This document shows positions 33,872 through 60,922 of a stretch of 64,000 bases of DNA, in pieces (position 1 is the stretch's first letter; every line of letters starts with the position of its first letter). The translations under genes were made by a program, and so were the position numbers. The notes under the pieces are model-generated. The model was not told where the DNA came from and searched no databases. It saw only the letters and a list, made by a program, of their open reading frames with translations. Origin of the DNA: an uncultured delta proteobacterium (GTDB lineage Bacteria > Myxococcota_A > Polyangia > Haliangiales > Haliangiaceae); contig CAWKDB010000010.1 of the NCBI GenBank assembly GCA_963848295.1, positions 3,200,001-3,264,000 on the forward strand, read 5' to 3'.

Positions 33872-33977
33872 CTGGGGACGCTGTCTCTATTGTCAACTTG
33901 CGCGGATCCGTGAATCCGCCACGTGGCTGATATTACTTAGGTTGCGCTGGGGACGCTGTCTCTATTGTCACTTTGCG
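33872..33977 (+). repeat. Repeat doublet A (subtype I): 31-bp direct repeats with a 44-bp spacer
   Basis: ctggggacgctgtctctattgtcaacttgcg (33872) and ctggggacgctgtctctattgtcactttgcg (33947). Confidence 0.9.
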
Positions 33978-34009
33978 GTCGTCGCCGTCCGGATCAGCGA
34001 CCGTCCGGA

Positions 34010-35905
34010 TCAGCGATCGGTAACGACGACCAGCGGCTCGCCGTAGAGCTCGGTCCATAGCGCGGTGGCGGCGCGGCGGAGGTCGGCATCGCTGGTCTTC
34101 GCGATCACCATCGAGGCGACCGCGAGTCGATCGCGATCGATCTCGCCGTCGTGGATCATCGGACCGGGGAGGGTCGCGCCGAGCTGCTTCGCGAGTCCGG
34201 ACAGCACGACAACCGCAACATATGACTCGGGCGAGCCCCAGCCCGGCTTCGCGAACGCATGCCCGGCGAGGTCCCAGACGACGAGCTGCGGGGTGACCGG
34301 ATCGTTCGCGATCTGAGACAGCCATGCGTTGAGCTCGGCGCGCGCGTGCCGGACCAGCCCGCGCGGGTTGCCGTCGCCGTCGTTGACATCGCCGGTCTCG
34401 GCCTCGAGTGCCGCGGGGTAGCGCAGCGGCGTCTTGCGATCGCCATCGACCCCGTGCTCGGCCTCGTGCCGGCGCACGGTCGCGGCGACGAGCTCGTTGC
34501 AGCGCGATGCGATGCGCGGTGCCTCGAGCTTCGCGAGCTCTTCTTCGATCGCGGTGACACGCTCGCTCTGATAGTGCGGCACGAGCCCCGACAGCTGGCT
34601 GACCATGTTCTCCGGCAAGAACAGATCGTCGGTGTCGACGATCTGCAACCTGCGTCGCGCCAGCGCGTCGCGCCACTGATCGACGATGTCGGTGCGCTCT
34701 CGCAGCAACGCGCCGATCTGAACGGTGACGTCGGCGTCGGCGCCGAGCGCAGCGCGGAGCTCGGTCCGCACGGCCGCGCCCGCGGCCAGTTGCAGCGCTT
34801 GAGTCTCGGCGCTGCCCGTCCAGCCTTGCTCGAGCAGCGGGAACGGCGCGTCCGGCGCGACGACCGGAATCACTTGGGTGGCGACGTGGTGATCGATCTG
34901 TTCGTAGAGCAAGACCGGATCGGCGAGCTCGGATGACTGCATCCCGAGCATCGTGTGCTCGATGTTGAGGTGATCGATCCGGCGCGCGGTCACGACTCGG
35001 CGCGGCAAGCCTGCGGCGATCACGAACGCGACCTGCTCGATCCGATAGACGAACAGCGCGGCCTGTGGATTCTCGCCCCCGTAGACGTCGCCCTCGATCA
35101 GGTAGCCGAGGCCGGCGCCGGCGAGCTCGTCCGACATCCGTCGAGCCGTTGCGATCAGCGTCGCGCCGTGCGCCTGCGCCTGAGCCTCCGTCGGGTGCGC
35201 CGGCCACTGATCGAGTTGGTCGAGCAGCGTGGTCCATGCGGTCGCGAGCGCGGGGCCGTGGGCGCGCAACTCGGGCGCGGCGCGCAGCTCGGTGATGAGC
35301 CGGTGGTGCTCGTTCGCAGAGTCGTCGGCATCTTGGTGATCGACCGCGATGACCAGTCGTGGCAAGGGCTCGGCGAGCAGATGCTCGATCGCGGCGTCGC
35401 GCAGCGGCACGCCGCCGGTCTTGAACGCGCCGACCGAAGGTGGTGGCGCGGGCGCGACATACGTCTTCGCCGCGGGTCCGGGTCGCGTGAAGATGTAAAC
35501 GGCGAAGGCAGCGCACAGCCCGAGCCCGGCGAGCCCGCTCGCGATCGTGGCGATCGGTAGGCGCGACCCAGGTGGCCGTTGTTCGCGGTGATAGGCCGCG
35601 AGTACCGACGACGGATCGCCGGGCGCCACCGCGGGCTCGCCGAGCACGGCGAGCGCGGCGATGCGCTGGACGTGGCGCGCGGCATCGGCGGGATCCCTGG
35701 GCAACGCGTGCCGGTCGACCTCGGAGACCACGAGCGCGGCGTCGATCAACGCGCTCGCGAGCCGGCGGCGGGCGACTCCGCGCAGCACCGGATCGATCCG
35801 GCCGATCGCGGCGCGCGCGACATCCTCGTCTCCGGCGGCAATCCCGGCGGCGAGCGCGGCCAGCACGTGGCGACGGACCATCGCATCTGGTGTCACACGC
35901 CGCAT
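34010..35905 (-). CDS. Membrane-anchored hypothetical protein with HExxH (gluzincin-like metallopeptidase motif)
   Basis: TM segment LAGLGLCAAFAVYIF; RHEAEH followed about 40 aa later by AELNA. Confidence 0.65.
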   Translation of the reverse strand: MRRVTPDAMVRRHVLAALAAGIAAGDEDVARAAIGRIDPVLRGVARRRLASALIDAALVVSEVDRHALPRDPADAARHVQRIAALAVLGEPAVAPGDPSSVLAAYHREQRPPGSRLPIATIASGLAGLGLCAAFAVYIFTRPGPAAKTYVAPAPPPSVGAFKTGGVPLRDAAIEHLLAEPLPRLVIAVDHQDADDSANEHHRLITELRAAPELRAHGPALATAWTTLLDQLDQWPAHPTEAQAQAHGATLIATARRMSDELAGAGLGYLIEGDVYGGENPQAALFVYRIEQVAFVIAAGLPRRVVTARRIDHLNIEHTMLGMQSSELADPVLLYEQIDHHVATQVIPVVAPDAPFPLLEQGWTGSAETQALQLAAGAAVRTELRAALGADADVTVQIGALLRERTDIVDQWRDALARRRLQIVDTDDLFLPENMVSQLSGLVPHYQSERVTAIEEELAKLEAPRIASRCNELVAATVRRHEAEHGVDGDRKTPLRYPAALEAETGDVNDGDGNPRGLVRHARAELNAWLSQIANDPVTPQLVVWDLAGHAFAKPGWGSPESYVAVVVLSGLAKQLGATLPGPMIHDGEIDRDRLAVASMVIAKTSDADLRRAATALWTELYGEPLVVVTDR

Positions 35906-35938
35906 GGGGAGCTGCAAGCGCCGGCGTCACGCCCCTCC

Positions 35939-36030
35939 GGTTGACAGAGTGAACACCGTCCCCAGCTAAGCGACGGAGATATCTGGGGTCCACGCGGTGT
36001 GCTGGTTGACAAGGTGAACACCGTCCCCGG
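35939..36030 (-). repeat. Repeat doublet B (subtype II), inverted relative to A; period 65 bp
   Basis: ggttgacagagtgaacaccgtccccag (35939) and ggttgacaaggtgaacaccgtccccgg (36004). Confidence 0.9.
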
Positions 36031-36082
36031 CGAAAAGTTGCCCCGACACCGCGAAGTGGACTAGCCATTTGATGGGAGACCC

Positions 36083-37006
36083 ATGGACGCAGCCCACGCC
36101 ATCATCGAGCCCGAGCTGTCCGGTCCGGCCGCCCTGCTGCGTGGAACTGCCCGCGGGCTGGAGCTCGTGGTCAATGGCCGCGCCTCGGCCGAAGCGATCG
36201 CGGTCGCACTGACCACCCGCCTCGAGGAGGCGCCCGCGTTCTTCCGCGGCAACGACGTCAAGATCTGCGTCGAAGATGGCCCGCTGGCGCCCGGCTGTCT
36301 CGCCCGGCTCGACGAGCTCGCGACGAAGTTCGCGCTGCGGATCACCGAGGTGGTCGCGACCGCGGTGCCCAAGCCGAACCTGGCGGCCGGCTCGGCGCCG
36401 ACCGAGTCGGAGTTCGGCGACGAAGAGCGCACGAACACCGCGATCGCGGTTATCGGTGCCGACGCGCAACCGACCGAGCTGTCGGCCAGCAATCTCATCC
36501 CCGAATCGACGACGGACATGGAGACATTCACCGCGCTCGCCGCGCTCGCCAACGCGGAGCGCGACCCCGGCTTTGGCTTCGAAGAGCCGACCCAGACCGC
36601 GGTCCCGCTCGCGCTCGCCGCGACGCCCGAGACCGAGCTCAACACCGCGTCGGGCGGCACGCGGCTCGTCGTCGGGCCCGTGCGCTCGGGCGTGATCCTC
36701 GATCACACCGGGCACGTCGTCGTGTTCGGCGACGTCAACCCGGGCGCGGAAGTGCGCGCGACCGGCAACATCATGGTGCTCGGTCGTCTGCGCGGTACCG
36801 CGCACGCCGCGATCGGCCAGGACGTCGGGTTCATCCTCGCGCTCCGGCTCGAGCCGCAACAGCTGCGGATCGGCCGGATGGTCGCGCGCGCCGCGGACAG
36901 CGATACGCCCGCCACGCAGACTGAAATCGCATACGCCAACGGCGACGGCATCGTCGTCGAGCAATACCTCGGCAAGCTCCCGCGCAACCTCGCCACCAGC
37001 CTCTAG
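36083..37006 (+). CDS. minC: Septum site-determining protein MinC (long acidic linker)
   Basis: APAFFRG N-domain; GPVRSG, VVFGDVNPGAEVRATGNIMVLGRLRGTAHA, LEPQQLRIG. Confidence 0.92.
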   Translation: MDAAHAIIEPELSGPAALLRGTARGLELVVNGRASAEAIAVALTTRLEEAPAFFRGNDVKICVEDGPLAPGCLARLDELATKFALRITEVVATAVPKPNLAAGSAPTESEFGDEERTNTAIAVIGADAQPTELSASNLIPESTTDMETFTALAALANAERDPGFGFEEPTQTAVPLALAATPETELNTASGGTRLVVGPVRSGVILDHTGHVVVFGDVNPGAEVRATGNIMVLGRLRGTAHAAIGQDVGFILALRLEPQQLRIGRMVARAADSDTPATQTEIAYANGDGIVVEQYLGKLPRNLATSL

Positions 37007-37018
37007 GAGTTACACATC

Positions 37019-37814
37019 ATGGGTCGAGCCATCGTCATCACGTCGGGCAAAGGAGGGGTCGGAAAGACGACCACTACCGCGAACCTCGGTACCGCGCTCG
37101 CGCAGCTCGGGCACAGCGTCGTGTTGATCGACGCCGACATCGGGCTGCGCAACCTCGACGTCGTGATGGGCCTCGAGAACCGCATCGTCTATCACGTCGT
37201 CGATGCGATCCAAGGCAAGTGCACGGTGCAGAAGGCGCTGATCAAAGATCGCAGGCTCGACAACCTGTGGCTGCTCCCCGCGTCGCAGACCGACGACAAG
37301 GACGCGGTGACGCCCGAGGATATGCGCAGCCTGGTGTTCGAGCTCAAGACCTCGTACGACTTCGTGCTGATCGATTGCCCGGCCGGCATCGAGCAAGGGC
37401 TTCAAGAACGCGATCGCCGGCGCCGACGAAGCGGTCGTGGTCGCGACCCCCGAGGTCTCGTCGATTCGCGATGCCGATCGCGTGGTCGGCTTGCTCGCCG
37501 CCGCCGACGTTCCCGCGCGGCTCGTCGTCAACCGGATCTCGGCGCACCTGGTCAAGCGCGGCGATATGCTGTCGCAAGCCGACGTCATCGAGATCCTCGC
37601 GCTCGAGATGCTCGGTGCGATCCCGCTCGACGACGAGGTGATCGCGACGACGAACAAGGGCGTGCCGGCGGTGCTCGAAGGCAAGTCGCTCGCGGCGAAG
37701 GAATTCATTCGCATCGCGAAGGCGCTCGCCGGGCACGAGGTCGAGGACAAGGCACCGGTTGGGTTCTTCACTCGTATCGGCCGCGCGCTCGGCCTGTCGG
37801 CGACCCCGGCGTGA
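37019..37814 (+). CDS. minD: Septum site-determining ATPase MinD, frameshift near 37398
   Basis: SGKGGVGKTT, DIGLRNLD, DCPAGIEQG; continues FKNAIAG...TPEVSSIRDADR...GFFTRIGRALG in another frame (extra G in caagggc). Confidence 0.92.
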
Positions 37815-37825
37815 GGACGTTTTTG

Positions 37826-38074
37826 ATGTGGCTCAAGAGTATTTTCGGCGCACGTCCCAGCAGCGAGGTCGCGAAGGGTCGCCTGCACCTCGTGCTCGCG
37901 CATGATCGTACCGGGCTCGACGGCGGGCGGTTGCAAGAGATGCGCAACGAGATCGCCGCGGTGATCGCGCGCTACGTGCCGATCGACGCGTCCGCGGTCG
38001 AGATCCAGATCGAGACCCGCAATCGCGCGACTCAGCTCACCGTGACGAGCGCGGTCCAACCCCGCAACGCCTGA
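37826..38074 (+). CDS. minE: Cell-division topological specificity factor MinE
   Basis: SSEVAKGRLHLVLAHDR...MRNEIAAVIARYV. Confidence 0.92.
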   Translation: MWLKSIFGARPSSEVAKGRLHLVLAHDRTGLDGGRLQEMRNEIAAVIARYVPIDASAVEIQIETRNRATQLTVTSAVQPRNA

Positions 38075-38082
38075 TCTGGGCG

Positions 38083-38129
38083 CGGCTCCGCCGTCACGGT
38101 CCTCGCCACGTCCAGGACCGTCGGAGCCG
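38083..38129. terminator. Stem-loop between convergent minE and RCC1 genes
   Basis: cggctccg...acggtcct / aggaccgt-cggagccg. Confidence 0.45.
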
Positions 38130-38145
38130 GATCGTCATGTCCTGG

Positions 38146-40113
38146 TCACTGCGGATCCGGATCGGCGACGCGCACCGCGGCGCTCGCTGGAACGTCATCG
38201 CGGATGTTCTCGAAGAAGTGGCCCCAACACGCGGCATGGCCGTTGCGGAGCCGCGCGCACGCTCGTTCGCCAGAGGCGCGGAGCTCGACGACGTCTCTGA
38301 GCTTCAACCGCACCGGCGTGGCGTGATCGCGCCCGCTCCCATCGCCGAGCGCGCCGGCGGTGTTTGCCCCCCAGCACCACGCCTCCCCGGTTTGCGTCCG
38401 AGCGCACGCAAACGCATCACCCGCGGTGAGCTCGACGACACGCGCCAGGCCGCGGACCGCGACAGGCGTCGCGCGCGCGGTGTGAGTGCCATCACCGAGC
38501 TGGCCGACCGCGTTCGCGCCCCAGCATGCGACCGTTGCATCCGCGAGCAGCGCACACGCGAAATCCTGACCAGCGACGACCGCGGTCGCGGGAGTGAGCG
38601 TGCGCACCGGAACGACCGCGAGGCTGCCGGCCTTCGTCGTCGTCGCCGCCGGATCGAGGCAGGCGACGCCGCCTTGCAAGTCGACGAAGCAGCGGGAGCT
38701 GATCGCGCGTGCCTTCCCGGCGACGCTGTACGCGGTCGTCGAGCGCATGTCGACGCCGTAGACACATCGCACGGCACCGGTGCCGAGCAAGACGCACGGA
38801 TCAGCGAGCGCGACGGCGCCGGCGACGTCGAGCAATCCCGCGACGCGCGCGGGCTTATCGAGCCGCTCGAATTGGCAGTTGTCCGGGCTGTCCCACCGGC
38901 ACGGTTCCCAGCTGACCGTGCCCCAACACGCCACCGCACCGCCACCGTCGACCGCGCAGGCGAACTCACGGCCCGAGACGATGTGGCTGGCCGGCGCGAG
39001 CGGCGCGATGTGCCGTGGCGCCTCGCCGGGCGCGGCCCAGCACGCGACGCTGCGATCGGCGCGGCGTGCGCACGTCTCGTCGTGCTCGACCGCGAGCTCG
39101 ACCGCGTCGCCGAGCCCGCGCGCTTCGATCGGCGTCGGCTGGGCACCATTCGGATCGTGCCGCCCGAGTGCGCCGTAGCTGTCGCCCCAGCATACGACCT
39201 CGCCGTTCGCACGCGCGCTGCACGACGTGCCTTGCGCCAAGGCTAGCGCGCCGACCCCACGGAGCTCGGGCGCTGGGCGGAACGGCTGCCACGAGTAGAG
39301 TCTGGTACCACCGCAGCTCGCGTCGCCGTTCGCGCGCGCGAAGCACAACGTCGAAATGCTGACCTCGAGATCGACGGCGCCGGCCACGCCGGCAACAGGA
39401 AACACTTCGAGGGTCGGTACGCCGGCCGAAAGCTCGAAGCCGATCACCGAGCCGTCGGGTAGGATCGCGTAGGCAGTTTCCGATGCCGCTGCGATCTGCT
39501 TGGCGCCTCGCGCAGCGACGAGCTCGAGCGGCGCGAGCTCCGGCTGGCTCGTCCGGAACATCATGCATGGGACGCGGCCGTCTTCGCCGATCGTGCAGAT
39601 GAAGTCGTCCCCCGCGACGATCCGCCGGGCGCGCTCGAGGCCTGCGATCGGTCGCGGGTCGTGGCCGCTGTCGCGCGTGGTTCGCCAGCACCACACGGTG
39701 CCGTTGCTACGTCGGACACACGCCTCGGACGCCGTGAGCGCGAGCTCGGCCGCGTCGGTGATCCCGGTGATGGCGTGCGGCGCCTGGTCGGCCGGATCGC
39801 CCGAGCCCCAGCACCATACGCGATGAGTGGCGACGATCGCGCAACTCGTCGTATCGCTCGCCCCGATCGCGACCGCGTCGGTGACCCCGGGGACGATGAT
39901 CGGGATAGGATGCGCTGTGAGAGTCGGATCGCCGACCTCGCCGGCCAGGTTCCGGCCCCAGCACATCACGCTGCGATCACCGCGGATCGCGCACATGTGA
40001 TCGTTACCGCTGACGAGCACATCGCGCCGCCACACGGTATGGGGCAGCCGTGTCGCCGGATCGGCGGCGGCGTACGAGCTCCACGCGATCGCGAGCGCGA
40101 TGACGAGCCGCAC
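38146..40113 (-). CDS. Secreted RCC1-repeat beta-propeller protein
   Basis: Repeated C-A-x-x-x-x-G-x-V-x-C-W-G and N-x-x-G-x-L-G-D-G motifs; signal peptide. Confidence 0.88.
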   Translation of the reverse strand: MRLVIALAIAWSSYAAADPATRLPHTVWRRDVLVSGNDHMCAIRGDRSVMCWGRNLAGEVGDPTLTAHPIPIIVPGVTDAVAIGASDTTSCAIVATHRVWCWGSGDPADQAPHAITGITDAAELALTASEACVRRSNGTVWCWRTTRDSGHDPRPIAGLERARRIVAGDDFICTIGEDGRVPCMMFRTSQPELAPLELVAARGAKQIAAASETAYAILPDGSVIGFELSAGVPTLEVFPVAGVAGAVDLEVSISTLCFARANGDASCGGTRLYSWQPFRPAPELRGVGALALAQGTSCSARANGEVVCWGDSYGALGRHDPNGAQPTPIEARGLGDAVELAVEHDETCARRADRSVACWAAPGEAPRHIAPLAPASHIVSGREFACAVDGGGAVACWGTVSWEPCRWDSPDNCQFERLDKPARVAGLLDVAGAVALADPCVLLGTGAVRCVYGVDMRSTTAYSVAGKARAISSRCFVDLQGGVACLDPAATTTKAGSLAVVPVRTLTPATAVVAGQDFACALLADATVACWGANAVGQLGDGTHTARATPVAVRGLARVVELTAGDAFACARTQTGEAWCWGANTAGALGDGSGRDHATPVRLKLRDVVELRASGERACARLRNGHAACWGHFFENIRDDVPASAAVRVADPDPQ

Positions 40114-40139
40114 TGAACGACTGTGGATCGACCGTGACG

Positions 40140-41051
40140 TCACCGCCAACGGCCGCCGATCCAGACGTAGCCACCGGCGCGCACTTGCCAGCTACCGCCC
40201 ATCCAGATCGCGTTAGGCGCGGGAGGTGCGCCCGGTCGCTCGACGCGCGGTGCGGGCATCGCGATCGCCTCGTCGCGCCAGAACCCGGTGCTCCAGGCCC
40301 AATCGTTGCCGGTCCATGTCCAGTAACCCGGCACCCAAGCGGCCCGTGCATTCGGCGCCGGCGGTTGTTGCTCGGCGAGCGGCGCTGGCGGCGGCGGGTG
40401 ATCCGGTGATGTCGGCACGTACGCCTCGCCCTTGTCGGGTTTGCGGTCGCGCTGCTCTCTCGCGTATTGCGCTTTGGTCTTCGCCGATGTCAGCTCGCGG
40501 ACCAGGAACACGACGCGTCGATAATCGTTCGGCGCATCCGACCACAGGCGCACGCGGATCCGGACCGAGCCGGGCTCGTCGGGACGCATCAGCATCGTTT
40601 CACCGACCACATCCTGCGCCTGCAGGCCGAGGTGCTCGCACAGCTTGTCGGTCCACGAGTCCTCACCGCCGGTCCACCGCTGCTCGATCAGCTGCGGTGC
40701 GGTGGTCGCCGAGGTGCCGGGCGCTGCGCCGGTAGCCGAGCGCGCACCGCCCGAACCGGTCGCGGTCGTGGTGCTAGGTCCGCCGCCGACGCAGCTCGCG
40801 TTGTCCGCGCCGTCTCCGAACGTACGGCCCGGCAACTTCAGGGCGCCGATCTGGATGTCGGCGTGACCGGCGATGCGATGCGGCGTACACGCGACGATCT
40901 CGACGCCATCACCGGCGCTCGCACCATCGCTGTCCCAGCTCAGCTCGAACGGCCCTTGGCTACAGCCGATCGGCGAGACGAACGCGCGCGTATGACGGTT
41001 GACGTCCGAGCCGCAGGCCGCGACGAGCGCGAGCGCGAGCGCGAGCCTCAT
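40140..41051 (-). CDS. Lipoprotein with C-terminal YXWGXW repeats
   Basis: Lipobox LVAAC; WVPGYWTW, WSTGFW, WMGGSW, WIGGRW. Confidence 0.8.
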   Translation of the reverse strand: MRLALALALVAACGSDVNRHTRAFVSPIGCSQGPFELSWDSDGASAGDGVEIVACTPHRIAGHADIQIGALKLPGRTFGDGADNASCVGGGPSTTTATGSGGARSATGAAPGTSATTAPQLIEQRWTGGEDSWTDKLCEHLGLQAQDVVGETMLMRPDEPGSVRIRVRLWSDAPNDYRRVVFLVRELTSAKTKAQYAREQRDRKPDKGEAYVPTSPDHPPPPAPLAEQQPPAPNARAAWVPGYWTWTGNDWAWSTGFWRDEAIAMPAPRVERPGAPPAPNAIWMGGSWQVRAGGYVWIGGRWR

Positions 41052-41093
41052 GCCGATCCGGACGGCGCTCGTCCGGCTCAGTCGCACGCCGGG

Positions 41094-42038
41094 CTACAGC
41101 TTGTAGCGATTCACCGTGCCGGCGATCGAGTTGGACCAGTAGAGATAGCCGTCCGCGATGACCAACCCGGTCTCGATCGGCTGGCCGGCGACGAGCACCG
41201 CCGGCGTGCCGCCGGTCTTGGCCATCGTCATGATCGCGTTCGTGCCGAAGTCGTACCAGTAGACGTTGGTCGCATCGACCGCGATGTCCTTCGCGAGGCT
41301 CTGACCCGACGCGAGCATCACCGGTGCGGTGTTGCCGTTCTTCGGCACCGAGTAGACCGTGCCGTCCATGTTGTCGGTCCAGTACACGGTCGTGTCGTCG
41401 AGCGCGATGCCCCACGGCTTGTGCAGCCCGGACACGAGCGGCGTCGCTCCGGGCGTGTCGAGCGCCGCCCACGAGATCGTGCCGCCCGGTTGATCGGTGT
41501 AGTAGACGTTCGTGGCGTCGATCGCGAGCGCGAACGGGCCGTCGCCCATCGCGAGCGTCAGCGCGGCACCGGGCGCGGTCGGCAAGCTCGTCACCGTGCC
41601 GGCGCCGGGATCGGTGATGTAGACGTTGTTCGAGTCGGACACGATGTTCCATGGCAAGAACGAGTTGGCGAGCTTCTGCTTGTCACCGCCGGCGATCGGC
41701 ACATACATCACCGTGCTGTCGCCGGAGTTCGTCCAGTACACGTTGCCGCCGACCGCGGTGACTCCGTACGGTGACGACAACCCGGTCGCGAGCGGCGTCG
41801 CGGCACCGCCGTCGCGCGGCGCCTTGCTCACGGTGTGGGCGTCGAGATCGAGGAAGTAGACATTGGTCGCATCGACCGCGAGATCGGCAGGGTGCATGAG
41901 CCCGGTCACGATCGCGACCGCTCCCGGGGGTGCATCCGGCGCCACATAGGAATCGACGGTTGGCGCGTCGGGCGTGTCCTGCGTGGTGTGCGTCGAACAG
42001 GCGGCGAGCAAGAGCGCGACGACTCCAGTGCGAATCAT
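41094..42038 (-). CDS. Beta-propeller lipoprotein (YWT-type repeats)
   Basis: Lipobox LLAAC; repeated AVDATNVYW / VYWT blades. Confidence 0.82.
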   Translation of the reverse strand: MIRTGVVALLLAACSTHTTQDTPDAPTVDSYVAPDAPPGAVAIVTGLMHPADLAVDATNVYFLDLDAHTVSKAPRDGGAATPLATGLSSPYGVTAVGGNVYWTNSGDSTVMYVPIAGGDKQKLANSFLPWNIVSDSNNVYITDPGAGTVTSLPTAPGAALTLAMGDGPFALAIDATNVYYTDQPGGTISWAALDTPGATPLVSGLHKPWGIALDDTTVYWTDNMDGTVYSVPKNGNTAPVMLASGQSLAKDIAVDATNVYWYDFGTNAIMTMAKTGGTPAVLVAGQPIETGLVIADGYLYWSNSIAGTVNRYKL

Positions 42039-42166
42039 GGCGCGCAAGATAGCAACAGACATACCAGCGCGGGTCAGAAATCGCCGGCCGTGCCGAGGGC
42101 GGCTACCTCAACAAACTGAGCTTCACCGGCGAGCGGACCTCTGTTTACTACCGGCTCCCGAGCCCG

Positions 42167-42629: not shown

Positions 42630-42638
42630 AGCTCGACC

Positions 42639-43742: not shown

Positions 43743-43821
43743 TTCTGTACCACCCGCAATCGCGATCCCCGTCGACTCCTCTTGTAACAACCCCGCGCGC
43801 TCGCAACGTCGTTAAGGACCC

Positions 43822-44406: not shown

Positions 44407-44940
44407 TCAGCGTCCGCTCACGCTGCTAGCTGCACGACGCTCGCGCTCGCGCTCGCGGGGGTCCCAGATCCTCGCTTCTTTCACCTTCACCGTGCAGGTC
44501 GCACGCAGCGGCACGCCTGAAGAGCTGAACATCGTGTACTTCGTCGAGACCGACTCGATGACGCAGCGGAATGGTTTCATTCCTTGAATGCCCCACGCGA
44601 CCACGCACAGCGGCGGCGCGCGCAGCACCTCGTCGCTCGAGGTCGGATCGGTCGGCGTCGCGAGCGACTCGAGCGCCTCGATCATTGGCTCGATCGACGT
44701 GTTGTGCTCGTAGGTGTCGAACAGCAGCGCGAGTGTCATCGTCCGCGGCTCCGCGCCGGTGTATTCCAGCGCGAGCGGCCCGGTGCCCTGGCCTTTCGTG
44801 CCGACGCCGCCATGCGTCGTCCACTTCACCGGCTTGTCCCGCTGGAGGTCCGCCGGGTTGTACTGCGCCTCGATGGACAGAGCGCCGTCGACCGCGCCGA
44901 TCATCAACCGCTCCTGCGCATGCCCAAAAGGAATTGCCAT
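44407..44940 (-). CDS. Contractile-injection-system tube/tube-initiator domain protein
   Basis: AQYNP, LEYTG, LLFDTYE, PPLCVVAWG, VIESVSTKYTMF...GVPLRATCTVKVKE. Confidence 0.8.
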   Translation of the reverse strand: MAIPFGHAQERLMIGAVDGALSIEAQYNPADLQRDKPVKWTTHGGVGTKGQGTGPLALEYTGAEPRTMTLALLFDTYEHNTSIEPMIEALESLATPTDPTSSDEVLRAPPLCVVAWGIQGMKPFRCVIESVSTKYTMFSSSGVPLRATCTVKVKEARIWDPRERERERRAASSVSGR

Positions 44941-44983
44941 GCGCCACGTATCGGCACATGGCCCGCCCCGGTTGCGCAGAAAC

Positions 44984-45072
44984 GGGGACGGTGTTCACTT
45001 TGACAACCGCGACTCAGAGAGGGAACTAACGAAAACAGGCGCTTAACTGGGGACGGTGTTCACTTTGACAAC
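44984..45072 (+). repeat. Repeat doublet C (subtype II); period 65 bp
   Basis: ggggacggtgttcactttgacaac identical at 44984 and 45049. Confidence 0.92.
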
Positions 45073-46442
45073 TGCGCACGCCGGCGCCGCCGTCGGCCGA
45101 CGACGAGCAGCGCCGCCATCGAGACGAGCGCGAGCGCATCGGGATCGCCACCTGCCTCGCAGCCGTGGTGATGCGCGGGCGGCTGGTCAGAGCCCGAGCC
45201 ATCGGGGTCGTCGAGCCGGGTGAGGCGAACCGCGTCGAACACGAGCTGTGCCATCTCCGCGCTCGGCTCACCGGTGTTGTCACCGAGATGGATCCATTGC
45301 TCGCCGCCGGCCGCGAAGTCGAACGTGCCGAGGGACTGCCAGCCGTCGACTGCGCTCTGATCGAGCACGACGTCTTGATCCGCGGCCGCGCCCGAGTGCA
45401 CGACGTACTTCGCTTGATGGGACGTCGCGTACGCCTGCGCGGTGTACACGTCGACTTGGTATGTGCCATCGCCGGTAAAATAGAGGTTCCACTGCGCGAA
45501 GTTCGCCTCGGTCGCCGCGTCGGTCGCGTGGGTCCAGATCAAGTCGCCTTGTTCACCCGCATCGGTGACGTGGCGCAGGTATGCCGGCGGGCCACCCGCC
45601 ACGAAGCACGCATCGCCGTCGTCGATCTCGAAGCTGTCGCCGATCTCGCCGCACGGTGGGCAATCCATCGGGCAGGAATCGCTGTCCTCGCTGCCGCTGC
45701 ACGTGCCGTCGCCGCACGTGCCGGCCATCGTGAACGTCATGAGATCCGCGAGCGTTCCGTCGAACACGTCGAGGTCGTGATCCGCGGTGCCGGCGACCCC
45801 ATCGACCGTGCCGGTATCGGTGTCTTGCCAGAACAGCCATTGCGTCCACGGATCGGGGATGTCCGGGCACGCCGCCGACGTGTACTGCGCGATCCACAGC
45901 GGCGAGGTTGTCACGTCGTAACCGCCGGTCAGCGTCGGCCACGAATACAGACCCGCATAGACGATCGGCGGCCGACCGATCGCAGCGGCGATGTGATCGA
46001 TCCACAGCTGGACCTGAGCGTCGACTTGCGCGGTGGTCAGCCCACCCGAGACTTCGAGATCGAGCACCGGCGGCAAGTCCCCGGGCTGTGGCGGGCCCAT
46101 CGCGGTGAGCAACAAGTCGGCTTGCGCGACCGCGTCCTCGGCCGGACGAAAGTATTGATAAGCGCCGCGGATGACGCCGGCGGCGCGCGCGGCGGGCCAG
46201 TACGTCGCGAACATCGGATCGGGATACTGCGTGCCGTCGCTGACTCGAATGAACGCGAAGTCGATCCCGGCGGCGTTCGCGGTGTCCCAATCGATCGCCG
46301 ATTCGTACGACGACACGTCCATCCCCGCGACGGTCGGGCCCGAGGCGCAAACAGTCGCGGCGGCGCTCGTCGCGGATTCGGGCTCGGGCTGTGCGCACGC
46401 AGCGACGGCGAGGAGTACGAGCGTGTAACACCGACGCAACAC
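45060..46442 (-). CDS. GH25 muramidase lipoprotein with an extra beta-sandwich domain and a MYXO-CTERM-like tail
   Basis: GMDVSSY, FAFIRVSDG, GAYQYF, VLDLE, FWQ, DLDVF; C-terminal GWQSLGTFDF...DAVRL; GC + TM + Arg tail; stop codon lies inside repeat C2. Confidence 0.88.
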   Translation of the reverse strand: MLRRCYTLVLLAVAACAQPEPESATSAAATVCASGPTVAGMDVSSYESAIDWDTANAAGIDFAFIRVSDGTQYPDPMFATYWPAARAAGVIRGAYQYFRPAEDAVAQADLLLTAMGPPQPGDLPPVLDLEVSGGLTTAQVDAQVQLWIDHIAAAIGRPPIVYAGLYSWPTLTGGYDVTTSPLWIAQYTSAACPDIPDPWTQWLFWQDTDTGTVDGVAGTADHDLDVFDGTLADLMTFTMAGTCGDGTCSGSEDSDSCPMDCPPCGEIGDSFEIDDGDACFVAGGPPAYLRHVTDAGEQGDLIWTHATDAATEANFAQWNLYFTGDGTYQVDVYTAQAYATSHQAKYVVHSGAAADQDVVLDQSAVDGWQSLGTFDFAAGGEQWIHLGDNTGEPSAEMAQLVFDAVRLTRLDDPDGSGSDQPPAHHHGCEAGGDPDALALVSMAALLVVGRRRRRRAQLSK

Positions 46443-51352: not shown

Positions 51353-51375
51353 TGCTACTACGATAGACTGTCGAG

Positions 51376-52197: not shown

Positions 52198-52272
52198 ACC
52201 GACTGGATCCCCGCGCCGTTGCCGTGCTGTAATGACCGCCTTCACGTGAGGCGGACGACCAAGGCGCCCCCG

Positions 52273-53043: not shown

Positions 53044-53121
53044 CTGTAGTTATTACGAAAGTCTGTTCGCCGCACGTGGATCTTGCGCGATGTCAGACCG
53101 CCGGGGCAGGGTATCCGTCCC

Positions 53122-53352
53122 ATGCAGACCAACGACAACATCGGACACACCGGTTCCGAGCCAGGCCACGGCGTCGCGCGCTATCAAGAGCTCCAGGCGA
53201 AGGTCGCCGCGATGGCGGGCGATTTCGAGAAGTTCTACAAGGACGGCAACAAGGCCGCCGGCACCCGCGTGCGCGTTGCGATGCAGGAGCTCAAGACGTT
53301 CGCGCAGCTCGTCCGCACCGAAGTGCAGTCGATCAAGAATACCAAAGAGTAA
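53122..53352 (+). CDS. Histone H1-like Hc1-family small protein
   Basis: DFEKFYKDGNKAAGTRVRVAMQELK...R.EVQ. Confidence 0.82.
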   Translation: MQTNDNIGHTGSEPGHGVARYQELQAKVAAMAGDFEKFYKDGNKAAGTRVRVAMQELKTFAQLVRTEVQSIKNTKE

Positions 53353-54061: not shown

Positions 54062-54066
54062 GCCGA

Positions 54067-54972: not shown

Positions 54973-55113
54973 AGTAACGCGACTCCCGCGCCACGGATCG
55001 GTGAACTGCGACAACGAGCGACAGCGACCGCGACACGGAGCGACACACGCGACACCTGCGACGAATGAAAAAATTTTGTACACCGCGACGGCGAGCCGGG
55101 TATCTCTGGATCC

Positions 55114-55419
55114 ATGCGAGTCACACCAGCTGTCTTGTTCGTCGCGCTCATCAGCTCCGCATGCGGTTCGGCGCAACCGCACGGTGCCTTCGGCAATGCC
55201 AACGTCGCGGCGGTGCGCGACGAGATCAAGTCGACGATCGGGCGCGAACGCGCGATCGTCTCGATGGGCAAGGTCTCCGCCGATCACGCCGTCGTCTACA
55301 CCGCGCCGCGCGCCGGCGAACCGGTCGCCAACGAAGAGACCTGGGTGCGCGACAGCCACGGCTGGAAGCTCGACCATTCGACTGCGATCGGGAGTGCACC
55401 CGCGGCAACGGGTGGATGA
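55114..55419 (+). CDS. Small lipoprotein
   Basis: Signal MRVTPAVLFVALISSAC. Confidence 0.6.
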   Translation: MRVTPAVLFVALISSACGSAQPHGAFGNANVAAVRDEIKSTIGRERAIVSMGKVSADHAVVYTAPRAGEPVANEETWVRDSHGWKLDHSTAIGSAPAATGG

Positions 55420-55448
55420 AGCGCCACGAGCGCGCTACATTCCCACCC

Positions 55449-55937
55449 ATGAAAAAGCTCGCACTCCTCGGCGCGGTCGCGATTCTCGGTGTGGGCGGTT
55501 GGCGGCTGACGCATCACTCGTCGGCGGAACCGGCGAAGGACAGCAAGCTCGCGTTCGATCGGCTGTGGATCGATCATCTGCCGACGAGCGAGCGCGACAC
55601 GATCAACGTCTACGTCGCGCTGACCGAGCAACCGGTCGGCGTGTTCCAGGCGGCGTCGATGTGGCGCGGCGAATACGAGATGTTCCACTACGAGGCGAAC
55701 GGCGACGAGGTCCGCGCGGTGTTCCCGCAGACCGGCGATCGCGAGCGCTTCCAGATCCGCGCGAGAGAGTGCGAAAAGGACGGTTTCACGTATTGCCTCG
55801 AGCTGCGCGGCGCGAAGCACGGCGTCAAGCGCTACTACTCGATGGATGGCTGGGAGGTCGGCGGCGGCGACGCGGACGCGGCCGAGGCGCAGATCGCGGC
55901 GAAGCTGCACGCGCTTGCCGCTCGCAGCGGCGAGTAG
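55449..55937 (+). CDS. Secreted or membrane-anchored hypothetical protein
   Basis: MKKLALLGAVAILGVGGW leader; coding-like codon usage. Confidence 0.7.
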   Translation: MKKLALLGAVAILGVGGWRLTHHSSAEPAKDSKLAFDRLWIDHLPTSERDTINVYVALTEQPVGVFQAASMWRGEYEMFHYEANGDEVRAVFPQTGDRERFQIRARECEKDGFTYCLELRGAKHGVKRYYSMDGWEVGGGDADAAEAQIAAKLHALAARSGE

Positions 55938-55942
55938 CGCGA

Positions 55943-56689
55943 TTACATCCCGACGATTTCGGTCGTCGTCAACGCCGGCACGCGGACGGTGACGTCGTGC
56001 GCCGGGATCGTCAAGCCAGTCGCGGTCGCAGTCACGCTCACGGAGCCGGGGGGGACGTTCATGATGTACGCGACGCCGTCGGTGTCGGTGGCCGTGGCCG
56101 TCATGCTCGGAAACCCGCCGGAGTTGTATTTCACGGTGTACGACGGTGTCGACGTCACGGTGGCGCCGACGACGGTCGCGCCGGTCGTGCCGTTGACGAC
56201 CTCGACCGCGATCGTGCCGTCGCCGTCGGTCTGGGACACCCGCGCGAGCGTATAGAGCAAGCCGTACGTTCCCGACGTGACCATCAAGACGTTCGCCATC
56301 GGCGTGTCCATCGTCAGCGGCGCGGGCGGGTACAGGTAGGTGTCGACGTAGCCGGTGATCGTGCCCTTGACGTAGCCGTCGACCGATCCGTTCTCGGTCG
56401 GCACCATGAGCGTGTACGTGCCGTCGGCCGCCGATGTCGTCATCACGGTCGGGGTGGTCGCGGTCTCGTGATATGCGCCGATCGTGACGTTCGCGAGCGC
56501 CTTGGTGCCGGTCGCGCCCTCCGACTCCGCCGTGCCGGTGATCGTGATCGGTGGGCCGGGGGCCGCATCGATCGCCTCGGCGTCGATACCGCCGCCACCG
56601 CCGCCGCCGCCGGGTCCGTCGATCGTGGCGCTACCACCACCGCCGCAGGCCACGAGACTCGCGAGCGCGAAAGATAAGTAGATTCGCAT
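55943..56689 (-). CDS. Lipoprotein with carboxypeptidase-regulatory-like beta-sandwich domains
   Basis: Lipobox LVAC; TSAADGTYTL, TDTDGVAYIMNVPPG. Confidence 0.72.
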   Translation of the reverse strand: MRIYLSFALASLVACGGGGSATIDGPGGGGGGGGIDAEAIDAAPGPPITITGTAESEGATGTKALANVTIGAYHETATTPTVMTTSAADGTYTLMVPTENGSVDGYVKGTITGYVDTYLYPPAPLTMDTPMANVLMVTSGTYGLLYTLARVSQTDGDGTIAVEVVNGTTGATVVGATVTSTPSYTVKYNSGGFPSMTATATDTDGVAYIMNVPPGSVSVTATATGLTIPAHDVTVRVPALTTTEIVGM

Positions 56690-56709
56690 CCGGCGATCGT
56701 ACAGGAATC

Positions 56710-57345
56710 TCAGCGCGCGCCGAATTCTTGATCGAACGTGGTGCGGATCGCACGCCCCGCGTCATCGAGCGCGGGCTCGTAGCGAAACCGCCAGACCCCG
56801 CCACACGCGTCGTGTGGGTCGATCGGGCCGCGGATGACGTGAGCCCCGACCACGAAACCTTGTTCGTCGACGGTGATCCGCGCCACGAACAGCGCGCCGT
56901 CGTCGACATCGGCGAGCCGAGTCGGGTAGATCAGCCGCGCTGGGCGAGCGCGCGACGCGGGCAGAGCAGCGGGCACCTCCGGCAGTGTCGGTCGGGGTGC
57001 GATACCGCCGAAGCCGTCGCCGCCGTCGCCGCCGTGCCCCGTTCCGCCACGGCCGTCGCCGCCGATCTCGCCTTCGTTGGGCGCACCCGGCGTGACGGTG
57101 ACGTCGGACATCGCGAGCGGGCGAGTCAGCGCGGCGCTCGCGCGGGGATGTGCGCCCCTCGGCGCGCCGGCACTCCCGCGGTGGCCAGGTGACGTTGCCG
57201 GTGGATCGATCATCGCGATCTCGATCGGAGGCGGATCGCCGACCGCACGCGGCGGCGATGACTGCGCCGCGAGCGGCGAGCTCGCCGCGAGTCGCCACGC
57301 GATGCCACCGACGATCACCGCGTGGATCGCGATCGACGTGGTCAC
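56710..57345 (-). CDS. TonB-like protein
   Basis: SIAIH TM motif; Pro/Gly linker; YP...ITVDEQGFV...WRFRYEPALDDAG. Confidence 0.65.
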   Translation of the reverse strand: MTTSIAIHAVIVGGIAWRLAASSPLAAQSSPPRAVGDPPPIEIAMIDPPATSPGHRGSAGAPRGAHPRASAALTRPLAMSDVTVTPGAPNEGEIGGDGRGGTGHGGDGGDGFGGIAPRPTLPEVPAALPASRARPARLIYPTRLADVDDGALFVARITVDEQGFVVGAHVIRGPIDPHDACGGVWRFRYEPALDDAGRAIRTTFDQEFGAR

Positions 57346-57479
57346 GCTGGCTCGACCGGCGGTCACCGGTCGATCATGACGCGAACCGCGCGGCCGGTGG
57401 CTCACCGCCGATCTCCCGCTGCGAGGCCGTCGTCGCAGGCGCGGCAGCCGGGTACGCTCGATCCGTGAACCATCCGAAG

Positions 57480-57677
57480 ATGACGTCGAGCGGCCGGCGC
57501 TGGGCGTTCTTGATCGGGCTGTGCGCAGCGCTGGCGATCCCGAAGCGGGTCGCGATCTCGGATCCGCAATCGCGGTGCGAGAGCTACTACGTCGAGCCGT
57601 GGGGGTTCTATCTCGTCGAATCGGCGTTGCACCGCGACCTCGGCGTCGCGTACTCGTCGGGGACCGACTGCCGGTGA
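57480..57677 (+). CDS. Small hypothetical protein
   Basis: Hydrophobic N-terminus; stop overlaps the mug start (GTGA). Confidence 0.5.
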   Translation: MTSSGRRWAFLIGLCAALAIPKRVAISDPQSRCESYYVEPWGFYLVESALHRDLGVAYSSGTDCR

Positions 57678-58201
57678 CGCAGCGGTTCGTCGGCACGCCG
57701 GAGATCCTGATCGATCGGCCGCGGATCCTGTTCGTCGGCATCAACCCCGGGATGACGTCGGGGCGAGTCGGTCACAACTTCGCGGGACCGGGCAACACGT
57801 TCTGGCGGCTGCTCCACGCCGCGCGGATCACGCCCGAGCTGATCGCGGCGGCCGACGATGCGCGGCTCGCCGACTTCGGCTGCGGGCTCGTCAACCTGTG
57901 CCGGCGCACGACGCGGACCGCGAGCGAATTGAAGCGGCGCGAGCTCGAGCGCGGACGCGACCGTCTCGCCGGCATCGTCGCCGAGCGACAACCGGCGTTG
58001 CTCGCGCTCGTCGGGGTGACGCTCGCGCCGATCGTGCTCGGCCGCGATATCGAGCCCGGGCCCGGAGCCAAGCGCCGGCGATTCGCGGGGGCGCGCGTGT
58101 TCGTCGTGCCGAATCCGAGTGGGCTGAACGCCTCGTTCCCGACGTTCGACGCGAAGCTCGTGTGGTTCGAGAAGTTGGCACGGGCAAGCCGGCCGCGCTG
58201 A
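57674..58201 (+). CDS. mug: G/U mismatch-specific uracil-DNA glycosylase
   Basis: LFVGINPG, HNFAGPGNTFW, PNPSGLN. Confidence 0.88.
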   Translation: MTQRFVGTPEILIDRPRILFVGINPGMTSGRVGHNFAGPGNTFWRLLHAARITPELIAAADDARLADFGCGLVNLCRRTTRTASELKRRELERGRDRLAGIVAERQPALLALVGVTLAPIVLGRDIEPGPGAKRRRFAGARVFVVPNPSGLNASFPTFDAKLVWFEKLARASRPR

Positions 58202-58213
58202 CGGACCCAGCAG

Positions 58214-59557
58214 CTACGCTCGCGAGGAGCGTGCGCTGAGCTCGACCACGACGATCTCCGTCCGCGGCTTGTCGATCAACAGCGTGGCGCCGTCAGCACC
58301 GACGCGGCGCGAGTCGGCGCCTTCGACGTGGACGTCGCAGCCCGCGCTCGCCCACCGCGCTGGGATCACGATCTCGGTCGGAGCGTCACCGACCGCGCGG
58401 TACGTCAGCCGCCACGCCTCGCGGCCGCTGTCCCACCGGATCGGTTCGCCGGCGATCGCACGCGGGTACGGACGGATCAGGGCATTCGTCCACGGGCGAT
58501 CGCCACCGCCGGGCGTGACGATCGAGGCCGCCTCGTCGTTCCAGTCGAGCTCGGTGGGGTTGTAGTGCCATACCGTCCAGCTCGCGAACGCGCGATCGAA
58601 CAGGCGAACCTCATCCTCCATCATGCGTTGTCCACCACGCGTGCCGTTGAGGACGCCGAACTCGCCGATGAACAGCGGCATGTGGAGGCGACGTGCAGAG
58701 CGCTCGATACGCCCGAGGCTCGCCGGAAACAGCGACAGCGCGGGCACGTAGCGTCCCACGAGAATCGCCGAGGCATCGTAGATATGCGGCGCGAACACCA
58801 GGTTGCGAGCCGGCACCCGCGGCAACCTTACGGGCGCCCCGAACGCTGCCATCGGCGACGGCTCGATGAACAGCAGACGCGTCGGATCGAGCTCGTCTCG
58901 CGCGTGCACGCACGCCTCGTAGTACGCGGGCAGCAAACGCCGCTCGAGCGCGCCGCCGAGCAGCGAGCCGATGCTGCCCATCGGTTCGTTGAACACGTCG
59001 TAGCCGATCACCGCTGGAACCTCTGCCATCACCTGCATCACGCGGCGCACGCACGTCACCAGCGAAGCTCGCAGGCCATCGGCGTCGCGCCAGAACCGCT
59101 CGAAGGCGCGTTGCACGGTGGGCCGCGTCAGGTAACGAAAGAACCAGGAACGACCAGGCGCGGCCGGTTCTTGGGGTGGCACGGTCCAGCTCGGCGCGCC
59201 GTCGCCGCCGAGCTCGCGCGAGAACAGATCCTGATGGAAGTCGACGATGACGTTCAGGCCGCGCTCGCCGGCCGCGATCGCGAGCGCCCTCAACTTTGCG
59301 AGGTATGCCTCGTCGTAGACGCCGCGCTCTGGCTCGAGCCCCTCCCACATCACGAGCAGGCGCACCGCGTTCCATCCCCACGCGGCGAGCGGATCGAACC
59401 AGGCGGGATCTTCGAACGGCAAGAACGGAGGATGCTTGCTGCGACCCGAGACGTTCGCCCCGCGGAAGATGCGGGCGCGCCCGAGCTGGTCGCGGATCCA
59501 ACGGCCATCGCAGTGAAGGCGTAGCTGCTGGACCATGCGGCGACGAACGTACTCCAT
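58214..59557 (-). CDS. GH5 endoglycoceramidase-like glycoside hydrolase
   Basis: RGANV, DFHQD, GDGAPSW, FNEP acid/base, APHIY, IGEFG nucleophile, RPYPRAIAG. Confidence 0.88.
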   Translation of the reverse strand: MEYVRRRMVQQLRLHCDGRWIRDQLGRARIFRGANVSGRSKHPPFLPFEDPAWFDPLAAWGWNAVRLLVMWEGLEPERGVYDEAYLAKLRALAIAAGERGLNVIVDFHQDLFSRELGGDGAPSWTVPPQEPAAPGRSWFFRYLTRPTVQRAFERFWRDADGLRASLVTCVRRVMQVMAEVPAVIGYDVFNEPMGSIGSLLGGALERRLLPAYYEACVHARDELDPTRLLFIEPSPMAAFGAPVRLPRVPARNLVFAPHIYDASAILVGRYVPALSLFPASLGRIERSARRLHMPLFIGEFGVLNGTRGGQRMMEDEVRLFDRAFASWTVWHYNPTELDWNDEAASIVTPGGGDRPWTNALIRPYPRAIAGEPIRWDSGREAWRLTYRAVGDAPTEIVIPARWASAGCDVHVEGADSRRVGADGATLLIDKPRTEIVVVELSARSSRA

Positions 59558-59616
59558 GTCGAGCGCGTCGATTCAACTCGAGGCGCGTTGTCATAGCGCT
59601 GCGCTATCGTCCCGTC

Positions 59617-59865
59617 ATGGTCGACACGCAATCGATCGCGGCGGTTCCTCTTCACGTCGGCGACTACGTCGCGTTCGCGCGCGATGTCCTCGCCGAGCTC
59701 GCACGGCCCACACCCGGCGCGCCGCCGACCTGGCGCTGCGTCACCGCCGGGACTCGCGCCCGCGTGATCGGCTGGCGCGATGCGCGCCCGGTGCTCGACG
59801 TCCAAGGCAGCGAGCGCCGGCTCGTCGTGTTCGCGCAACCGGCCAGCATCGCGCGCCTGAGCTAA
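59617..59865 (+). CDS. Small hypothetical protein (SH3-like beta pattern)
   Basis: ATG start; LHVGDYV...VTAGTRARVIG. Confidence 0.5.
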   Translation: MVDTQSIAAVPLHVGDYVAFARDVLAELARPTPGAPPTWRCVTAGTRARVIGWRDARPVLDVQGSERRLVVFAQPASIARLS

Positions 59866-59932
59866 GCGTAAGCCTTACATCGGCCTTACATCGCGCGCGC
59901 AACCGATGGTGCGGTCGCGCGTCTGATCGCCG

Positions 59933-60898
59933 ATGGGAAGCCAACGGCTCGCCGCGTCTGTCGCGTGTATCGCGTGTATCGCGTGGGTCGGGCTCGCCGG
60001 TGCGCTCGCGTTCGCCGAACCGAGCCACCAGCTCGCGAGCGTGTTGATCGAGGATATGCCGCACGTCACGCAGCGACCGGACTTCTGCGGCGAAGCGTGC
60101 GTCGAGATGGCGGCTCGGCGGCTCGGCAAGACCTACGACCAGAACGACGTATTCGCGGCGACCGACCTCGACCCGGCGCTCGGCCGTGGCGCGTACACCC
60201 CCGAGCTCGTCCACGCGGTCGAGAAGCTCGGCTTCAAGCCGGGCCACGTCTACACCCTCGTCGACGAGCGCGCACCGCGCGCCGGCATCGAACGCGAGCT
60301 CGCCGCGCTGCACGCCGATCTCGTGCGCGGCGTGCCGAGTATCGTGTGCATGCACTACGACGACCAGCCGCACACGACCGAGCACTTCCGGCTCGTCGTC
60401 GGCTACGACGCGGATCGCGACGAGATCGTCTATCAAGAACCTGCGGTCGAAGACGGCGGTTACCGCCGGATGACCCGGGCGATGTTCGAACAGCTGTGGC
60501 AACTGCCGTCGTCCACCGCAGGCAAGCGCGTGCTCGTGCGCATCCCGCTCGTCCCTGGCACCTTAGCGACCCCGGCGCACACGACCGCGGCCGCCGATAG
60601 CGTCCAGCACGTGATGGAGCTGCGAGACCAGCTCGACCGCGCGAAGCTAGGCCGCCTCGCGATTCGCGTCGTCGATCCGTTCATCGTCATCGGCGATCGC
60701 CAGGCCGTGGCGCACGCGACCAAAGCGACCCTCCAGCGCTGGGCCACCTCGGGTGACGTCTTCCTGTTTCGCGATGCGAAGGAGACCGCGCACGCGCGTG
60801 CCGCGCTCGGAGACATCGGCGTGACGCTGTCTCTTTTGTCAACTTGCGGTTCGGGCATCCCCATCCAACCGGCCGTAGCTCTTGGAGAAAAATGGTGA
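59933..60898 (+). CDS. Secreted C39-like cysteine peptidase; C-terminus reads through repeat doublet D
   Basis: PHVTQRPDFCGEAC, TEHFRLVVGYD, YQEP; last ~25 codons are repeat/spacer sequence. Confidence 0.78.
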   Translation: MGSQRLAASVACIACIAWVGLAGALAFAEPSHQLASVLIEDMPHVTQRPDFCGEACVEMAARRLGKTYDQNDVFAATDLDPALGRGAYTPELVHAVEKLGFKPGHVYTLVDERAPRAGIERELAALHADLVRGVPSIVCMHYDDQPHTTEHFRLVVGYDADRDEIVYQEPAVEDGGYRRMTRAMFEQLWQLPSSTAGKRVLVRIPLVPGTLATPAHTTAAADSVQHVMELRDQLDRAKLGRLAIRVVDPFIVIGDRQAVAHATKATLQRWATSGDVFLFRDAKETAHARAALGDIGVTLSLLSTCGSGIPIQPAVALGEKW

Positions 60899-60922
60899 CG
60901 CTGTCTCTTTTGTCAACTTGCG
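60821..60922 (+). repeat. Repeat doublet D (subtype I); period 74 bp
   Basis: gtgacgctgtctcttttgtcaacttgcg identical at 60821 and 60895. Confidence 0.92.

Follow-up and report, generated by a model that had tools for sequence, protein, structure and literature searches.

Here we describe a 64-kb window of DNA (64,000 nucleotides; positions 3,200,001 to 3,264,000 of contig CAWKDB010000010.1, assembly GCA_963848295.1) from an uncultured delta proteobacterium of the Haliangiaceae, and the four doublets of direct repeats which it carries. The doublets can be identified with high confidence as TIRtron ends, and it is probable that each of them is a stray copy of one two-part TIRtron end, likely spread, and likely also rewritten, by two transposases resident in the genome. 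A TIRtron end, as the term is used here, consists of two direct repeats of 26-30 nt at a fixed period. The first-pass annotation of the window had placed the four doublets correctly, with periods of 75, 65, 65 and 74 (its minus-strand coordinates were the left-hand ones), and considered them a candidate for an undescribed system. This they are not, because the direct pair is one end of an element whose complete form has inverted ends, as in the TIRtron/TIRYT class (subclass 2.1) already described (PMC3733652, PMC6006769, as far as the available parts of these papers go); motifs, fold and flanks assign the doublets to this class.

The repeat family and its two transposases

A position weight matrix was trained on the core motif of the first-pass annotation and used at a threshold of at least 14 bits to scan the source genome (7.78 Mb, 85% complete). 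The scan gave 249 matches grouped in 126 clusters, and the reversed genome, used as control, gave none at 12 bits or above. Pure direct doublets made up 70 of the clusters; the others were 27 singles, 6 direct triplets and 23 clusters with an inverted pair. In the genome-wide scan suggested by the first-pass annotation direct doublets thus dominate, and the inverted doublet is not the main unit. Four ++-- units were seen among the clusters, and many in genome G011. By subtype, 156 repeats belonged to I, 69 to II and 24 to III. Once a duplicate on contig C7 had been set aside, there were 99 pairs of adjacent repeats on the same strand with a spacing of at most 110 bp; the period was 73-75 in 55 and 64-66 in 26 of these. 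Near-identical doublets at C7:5265-5339, on a 5-kb contig, and at C10:3595322-3595396 are likely an assembly duplicate or a strain variant. The motif is lineage-specific, its exact pattern occurring in 6 of 41 genomes.

The cognate genes were located by reading the DNA between inward-pointing repeat clusters. Both encode HUH/Y1 transposases and both lie outside the window: TnII (307 amino acids, C10:1101402-1102322) is framed by inverted subtype II doublets with a period of 65 at both ends, and TnI (316 amino acids, C10:2680393-2679446) by inverted subtype I doublets with periods of 74 and 73. A Y1/HUH gene flanked by the motif, which the first-pass annotation had proposed to look for, thus exists in two versions. 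The proposal of a non-autonomous unit related to RAYT-type elements was right as to the kind of element and the existence of cognate HUH genes; the complete element, however, has inverted ends, and a direct pair makes up just one of these. TnI and TnII are 54% identical, and in the assembly each is the only homologue of the other. Their catalytic motifs are intact (NHIH in TnII and SHIH in TnI for HUH, YIHNNP for Y---NP), and residues H59, H61, Y117, N121 and P122 are invariant in 15 of 15 aligned homologues.

The predicted structure has a pLDDT of 82 overall and ~77-94 in the helical C-terminal domain. In a Foldseek search the TnII model matched TnpA-REP (4ER8, E 8e-6) first, then TnpA proteins of the IS200 family (ISDra2, IS608) and, more weakly, the DNA-binding domain of DnaA (3PVP, TM 0.72 by target, E 0.03). 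The NCBIfam model REP_Tyr_transpos hit the cognate transposases under its cut-off (E 5e-11), as did Bac_DnaA_C (E 0.001) and HTH_23 (E 0.12) of Pfam with TnI; the Pfam search found no helix-turn-helix (HTH) domain in TnII, and a sequence-profile search of the PDB returned nothing significant. The C-terminal tail of both enzymes is predicted from these matches to be an HTH resembling domain IV of DnaA.

Genes found with Pfam PF01797 were rejected as cognates: the genome has nine such Y1 genes, and the motif is within 1.5 kb of none. This search missed TnI and TnII because both score under the cut-off. The nine other Y1/HUH genes (L001-L009; C10: 3806926, 3657655, 1439500, 4550601, 261800, 3445968 and 3040575; C2: 330154 and 1374309) code for Y---NW instead of Y---NP and for a basic N-terminus, and are not flanked by the repeat motif. 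Seven of them look like close paralogues and at least two are apparently truncated.

In a sister genome (G117, ~89% nucleotide identity, 182 pattern matches) TnI and TnII are at the same loci as in the source genome, with ratios of nonsynonymous to synonymous substitution (dN/dS) of 0.14 and 0.21. The shared loci and the purifying selection indicate that the two genes are inherited vertically, like RAYTs. They are sister paralogues whose split is older than that of the two genomes.

Homologues of TnI/TnII were found in 60 of 138 genomes of the family (a tally including one unpublished genome), the nearest records being from Kofleriaceae/Haliangiales myxobacteria. A survey of 52 homologue loci (after removal of 4 duplicates) showed tagged inverted ends at 51, with at least two direct repeats at both ends in 29 and at one end in 7. 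The end period was element-specific, usually equal at both ends and mostly 54-75 with a mode of 61, and dispersed copies had the period of their own gene in other genomes too (59 and 54 in G011, 66 in G066, 59 in G119). The exact tag GGGGWSAS was found in homologues with 33-46% identity (e.g. L029, L039, L049, L253, L264). It was present also in more distant homologues, often with single ends; in this set 60 of the 79 loci were examined, partly overlapping the 52-locus set.

The comparisons with published systems that follow are based on the available portions of the cited texts. TIRYTs were described as tyrosine transposase genes within inverted non-REP repeats having a GGGG(A/T)C-type tag; the terminal inverted repeats (TIRs) are dispersed as singles, dimers or groups, several element-specific systems occur per genome, and the tag GGGGWSAS, given for some TIRs but not all, is typical rather than defining (Di Nocera, De Gregorio, Rocco 2013, PMC3733652). 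The present elements agree with this in the gene framed by inverted non-hairpin ends, the dispersed copies and the several element-specific systems in one genome. They differ in that each end is made of two direct repeats at an element-specific period, that solo direct doublets are the commonest dispersed form, and that there are ~250 copies compared with "moderately abundant" TIRs; the "dimers" mentioned there may include direct pairs. TnpA-Y1 subclass 2.1 is characterized by a Y---NP signature, HuH, a W-S-S/T-S motif after the tyrosine, a C-terminal HTH like Bac_DnaA_C/HTH_23, hairpin REPs (repetitive extragenic palindromes) not being nearby, and a median length of 238 amino acids; subclass 2.1/TIRYT is the second-largest Y1 HUH group, present in 14.9% of species (Quentin et al. 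2018, PMC6006769). TnI and TnII share the Y---NP, HuH and W-S-S/T-S motifs, the (predicted) DnaA-like C-terminal HTH and the lack of hairpin REPs. They are longer (307-316 amino acids), and the repeat sequence here co-varies with the HTH, whereas it was left undecided in PMC6006769 whether the HTH recognizes the flanks.

In REPIN-RAYT systems the REPs are GTAG-tagged hairpins and the REPINs inverted doublets (Bertels and Rainey 2011, PMC3116915; Nunvar et al. 2013, PMC3686654; Bertels et al. 2017, PMC5581495; Corneloup et al. 2021, PMC8266576). The present system is similar in having single-copy, vertically inherited HUH genes under purifying selection with hundreds of extragenic cognate repeats, and in that the cognate repeats diverged after the gene had been duplicated; it differs in that the repeats lack the GTAG- or CGTC-tagged stem-loop of RAYT groups 2 and 3 and that the common unit is direct. 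According to the orthoswitch model new repeat variants spread while old copies remain and decay (Nunvar et al. 2013, PMC3686654). In contrast, copies at shared sites appear here to have been converted to the new variant. The text on REPORTH mentions conversion just as a possible use.

Repeats and doublets folded no better than shuffles (6 of 6 sequences, z-scores between -0.7 and +1.2), and an Rfam search of the repeats gave no match. The catalytic fold is the same as that of the IS200/IS605 TnpA proteins (IS608, ISDra2), whose phosphotyrosine chemistry on single strands the present enzymes would share; the differences from these are the absence of subterminal hairpins, the transposase gene that is not multicopy and the extra HTH domain. 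As to classical miniature inverted-repeat transposable elements (DDE type), which have inverted ends with a target-site duplication, an alignment of 14 filled/empty or changed sites showed no consistent duplication, and the transposases that go with the repeats are of the HUH type. In the literature searched, with subscription journals mostly outside its coverage and part of the texts available, the class was treated in the 2013 and 2018 papers only, no biochemistry on a TIRYT was found, and two-part direct-repeat ends, dominance of solo ends and in-place rewriting were not met in print.

Differences between the sister genomes at shared sites

Sixty clusters of the sister genome were examined, taken from the first 100 of its 182 matches and from additional loci. 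Both flanks could be mapped for 44, of which 31 were common to the source genome and 13 were empty in it (L091 is a clean empty case). This comparison of orthologous loci for empty sites, which the first-pass annotation had recommended, shows that repeat sites were gained or lost between the two genomes.

At the sites that are shared, the repeats themselves have changed. Subtype I has a diagnostic base which is T in the source genome (129 of 156) and G in the sister genome (74 of 75 seen), and the TnI ends of each genome carry the variant of their own genome. In 14 orthologous doublets this base differed at 23 of 28 repeats, always G in the sister genome and T in the source genome; as background, fourfold sites differ by 23% over the genome as a whole and by ~45% within the transposase genes. 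Where the orthologous linker ranked among the top 3 of 56, the diagnostic base differed at 15 of 18 repeats. Subtype was switched at three of the shared sites (31 in all). The inverted pair at L085 had changed between II and III in both of its repeats, with flanks that align up to the tag. In one place the sister genome has subtype II where the source genome has subtype III. Taken together, the resident repeats were likely rewritten in place by the transposases.

The sequence of the repeats seems to follow the C-terminal HTH more than the catalytic core. Over 47 loci, the sequence distance between repeats tracked that of the HTH (partial Mantel r 0.25, p 0.001) more than that of the HUH core (r 0.08, p 0.15). 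When the source and sister genomes are compared, TnII shows no change in its predicted HTH stretch or in its repeat consensus, and TnI shows a change in both HTH stretch and repeat. These correlations are suggestive of recognition by the HTH, and both are confounded by kinship.

The changes could also have come about without in-place rewriting, a possibility to which we give appreciable weight although we would not bet on it. The doublets would still be TIRtron ends, but would have been re-inserted whole at reusable hot spots, changed by gene conversion of the host's RecA type, or selected copy by copy for binding a domesticated HTH protein. Wholesale replacement would agree with the finding that in some cases orthologous linkers resemble each other no better than random linkers do (ranks 34 and 36 of 56). 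The copies cluster near dnaA and at the ends of genes, which might point to a host role under selection, and the TnI orthologues differ in the region of the recognition helix. However, in five doublets with an orthologous linker of rank 1 among 56, the diagnostic base differs all the same at 9 out of 10 repeats. Furthermore, degenerate repeat positions differ at 14 and 13 of 28 orthologous repeats (one doublet of the sister genome being counted twice), i.e. they are randomized, an outcome not expected if a drifting site were under selection. Against RecA-type conversion speaks also that 26-30 nt repeats are short for RecA.

Proposed mechanism and other explanations

We lean, on balance, towards the following mechanism of reading by the HTH, paired loading, nicking, copying and overwriting, which is built on sequence comparison. 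The DnaA-domain-IV-like HTH would read the variable 3' half of the repeat in duplex DNA and thereby take over the role of the IS200/RAYT hairpin, and the two repeats at their set spacing would load two protomers, or one dimer, per end. The HUH core would nick one strand near the GG(G/T)GACG tag via a phosphotyrosine and join it to another strand. On a naive target a further solo end would arise in this way, in some cases as an inverted copy at a distance of 1-1.6 kb, and the copies that persist would be mostly those next to a stop codon or providing one. If the target is an end already in place, the repeat body would be replaced while linker and flanks are kept, and the family would be homogenized. 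The full proposal, a hairpin-independent HUH recombinase whose HTH reads direct repeats in duplex DNA and which copies ends, overwrites existing repeats and builds inverted ends around neighbouring genes, is offered tentatively, as something that may well turn out otherwise.

If true, a change in the specificity of the enzyme would be passed on to the resident sites, of which there are about a hundred or more. In-place rewriting would then explain directly how dispersed bacterial repeats evolve in concert, by a route different from the published spread-and-decay model, and would represent a compact site-specific DNA-writing activity. The enzymes of the source genome could help to answer how subclass 2.1/TIRYT recognizes DNA without hairpins. 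Two sister enzymes with 54% identity but different ends and periods, together with ~50 natural enzyme-end pairs in relatives, make up a testable specificity code.

Several observations weigh against this interpretation. The case is founded on sequence comparison and predicted structure, and the concerted change was seen in one genome pair, where paired repeats do not count as independent cases. The Mantel result is confounded by kinship, 7 of 9 TG(T/A)CA-type ends being in one clade. The tag GG(G/T)GACG(C/G) fits GGGGWSAS at 7 of 8 positions, with G in place of A. Subtype III (24 matches) has no cognate gene in the 85%-complete assembly; it is likely an orphan family, or its cognate gene is unassembled. 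No fixed insertion boundary or target duplication could be made out at the divergence of the two genomes, and junctions differ between sites. Bare tags after stop codons are not enriched (13 compared with 10.6 for permuted 7-mers). Finally, the AT patches of the linkers have a period of 12-13.5 nt and the family periods are no multiples of 10.5. Helical phasing of the repeats is therefore unsupported.

Stop codons, whose positions were taken from codon-model gene calls made for this analysis, lie close to many repeats: 46 of 102 single-orientation clusters start at -4 to +6 nt from a stop, and clusters are at gene stops more than at starts. This probably reflects that harmless insertions survive, but it may also come from targeting. 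The idea of excision scars was dropped, as single cases resemble them (L116, L150, L094, C10:3400484) but genome-wide enrichment is absent. In two soil sequencing runs of low depth, one possibly from the same strain, no joint was seen at repeats, an uninformative result.

An improbable though not negligible explanation is that the doublets form a gene-capture system, in which host or accessory genes lying between inverted doublets are mobilized together with these as composite cassettes. Inward-pointing arrangement is indeed in excess: of 25 pairs of neighbouring clusters not more than 3.5 kb apart, 15 show it, as do 13 of 23 (p 0.001) when the two TIRtrons are left out. Among the eight convergent type I pairs with a distance of up to 3.6 kb, three have a linker identity of 0.69-0.78, whereas only 6 of 1485 type I pairs reach 0.7. 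Such similar linkers imply, in line with the mechanism proposed above, that an end was copied in inverted orientation 1-1.6 kb away. At L131, which is one such convergent pair, a doublet and ~0.9 kb are present in the source genome and absent in the sister genome, and L136 shows a similar difference with a gene between the ends. On the other hand, a repeat is present at no more than 3 of the 61 synteny breakpoints in 762 kb (40 large contigs of the sister genome; a low-power test), so shuffling of genes by the ends is not established. Several bracketed genes are core-like (presumably ksgA-, trmB- and selB-like, from their sequence motifs), and no bracketed gene was found at a new location. Cargo mobilization found no support, there being no enrichment at breakpoints in the same low-power test. 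A small gene and, downstream of it, a gene which we take from its motifs to be that of a putative nucleotidyltransferase lie between inward-pointing repeats at C10:1804093-1804995, where the sister genome has ~150 bp only between the repeats.

It is very unlikely that the repeats are sites for a transcription or replication factor of the host, such as DnaA-like boxes close to the origin. In favour of such sites, the 300 kb on either side of dnaA (C10:2645000-3245000) hold 41 of the 126 clusters of the source genome, compared with 9.7 expected. However, the motif is confined to a few genomes, polymorphic between sisters and more often at stops than at starts, and its variants match their own transposase. 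The strand bias of the repeats is borderline (47 leading, 29 lagging, p 0.05).

The linkers bear on the least probable explanation. The first-pass annotation was correct in that the spacers differ between doublets (mean pairwise identity ~0.5), but they are not free sequence: they are conserved by position, with an information of 13.0 and 14.7 bits compared with shuffle maxima of 2.3 and 4.3. Because this position-specific signal far exceeds that of shuffles, the linkers are constrained and are not CRISPR spacers. Among the matches listed in the genome there were only other linkers or chance 16-19-mers, so that captured host DNA is not supported as their source. Single-spacer, CRISPR-like mini-arrays yielding guide or regulatory small RNAs, which the first-pass annotation had considered on account of the repeat-spacer-repeat look, the constant period and the diverse linkers, can be practically dismissed, because besides the constrained linkers there was no phage match for the two linkers tested, no cas1 was found in the 85%-complete genome, Rfam gave no match, and the doublets frame transposase genes by subtype.

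Repeats and neighbouring genes in the window

The repeats are treated here as 30-nt units in window coordinates. The first subtype I doublet (plus strand, outer unit 33872..33901, inner unit 33947..33976, period 75) begins directly 3' of the TGA of a kinase gene (32546-33871); its 45-nt linker (33902..33946) shows weak position-wise conservation and no phage match. The orthologous site in the sister genome has a type I doublet too. On the minus strand, a subtype II doublet with period 65 (outer unit 36001..36030, 35-nt linker 35966..36000, inner unit 35936..35965) is located between the divergent starts of minC (36083) and of gene 34010-35881, and here the sister genome has a subtype I doublet instead.

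The second subtype II doublet (plus strand, 44982..45011 and 45047..45076, period 65, with a 35-nt linker at 45012..45046 that has no phage match) provides with its inner unit the stop codon of a GH25 gene (TGA, 45060-45062, minus strand). In the sister genome this doublet is missing and just the 5' tag is left. The last doublet, of subtype I (plus strand, 60818..60847 and 60892..60921, period 74), replaces the C-terminus of the open reading frame 59933-60898. The frame continues across the first repeat and the 44-nt linker (60848..60891), which is in frame with the new C-terminus, and ends within the second repeat (stop codon 60896-60898). The orthologue in the sister genome ends 23 nt further into host sequence, ahead of its own doublet. 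All three contexts reported in the first-pass annotation (at 33872, 45060 and 60821) were thus confirmed. A fifth repeat in the window is a solitary subtype III copy (18548..18577, plus strand), for which the assembly yielded no cognate transposase.

Many subtype II repeats contain a TTGACA hexamer that faces the framed gene (e.g. 45047-45076 and the 5' end of TnII, L022:851), and subtype I has such a hexamer pointing outwards. Judged by sequence, these hexamers are possible -35 elements or could serve autoregulation.

Three further features of the window were noticed. A gene resembling those for tubes of contractile injection systems (PF19266, E 6e-22; 44407-44940, minus strand) adjoins the doublet at 44982 and is shorter in the sister genome. 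About 3 kb with RCC1-repeat and WXXGXW genes (38070-41095) are absent from the sister genome, and a single repeat is at the junction in L059. At 492-4714 (minus strand) there are three tandem paralogous genes, spaced by ~1.4-1.5 kb and 60-80% alike in DNA sequence.

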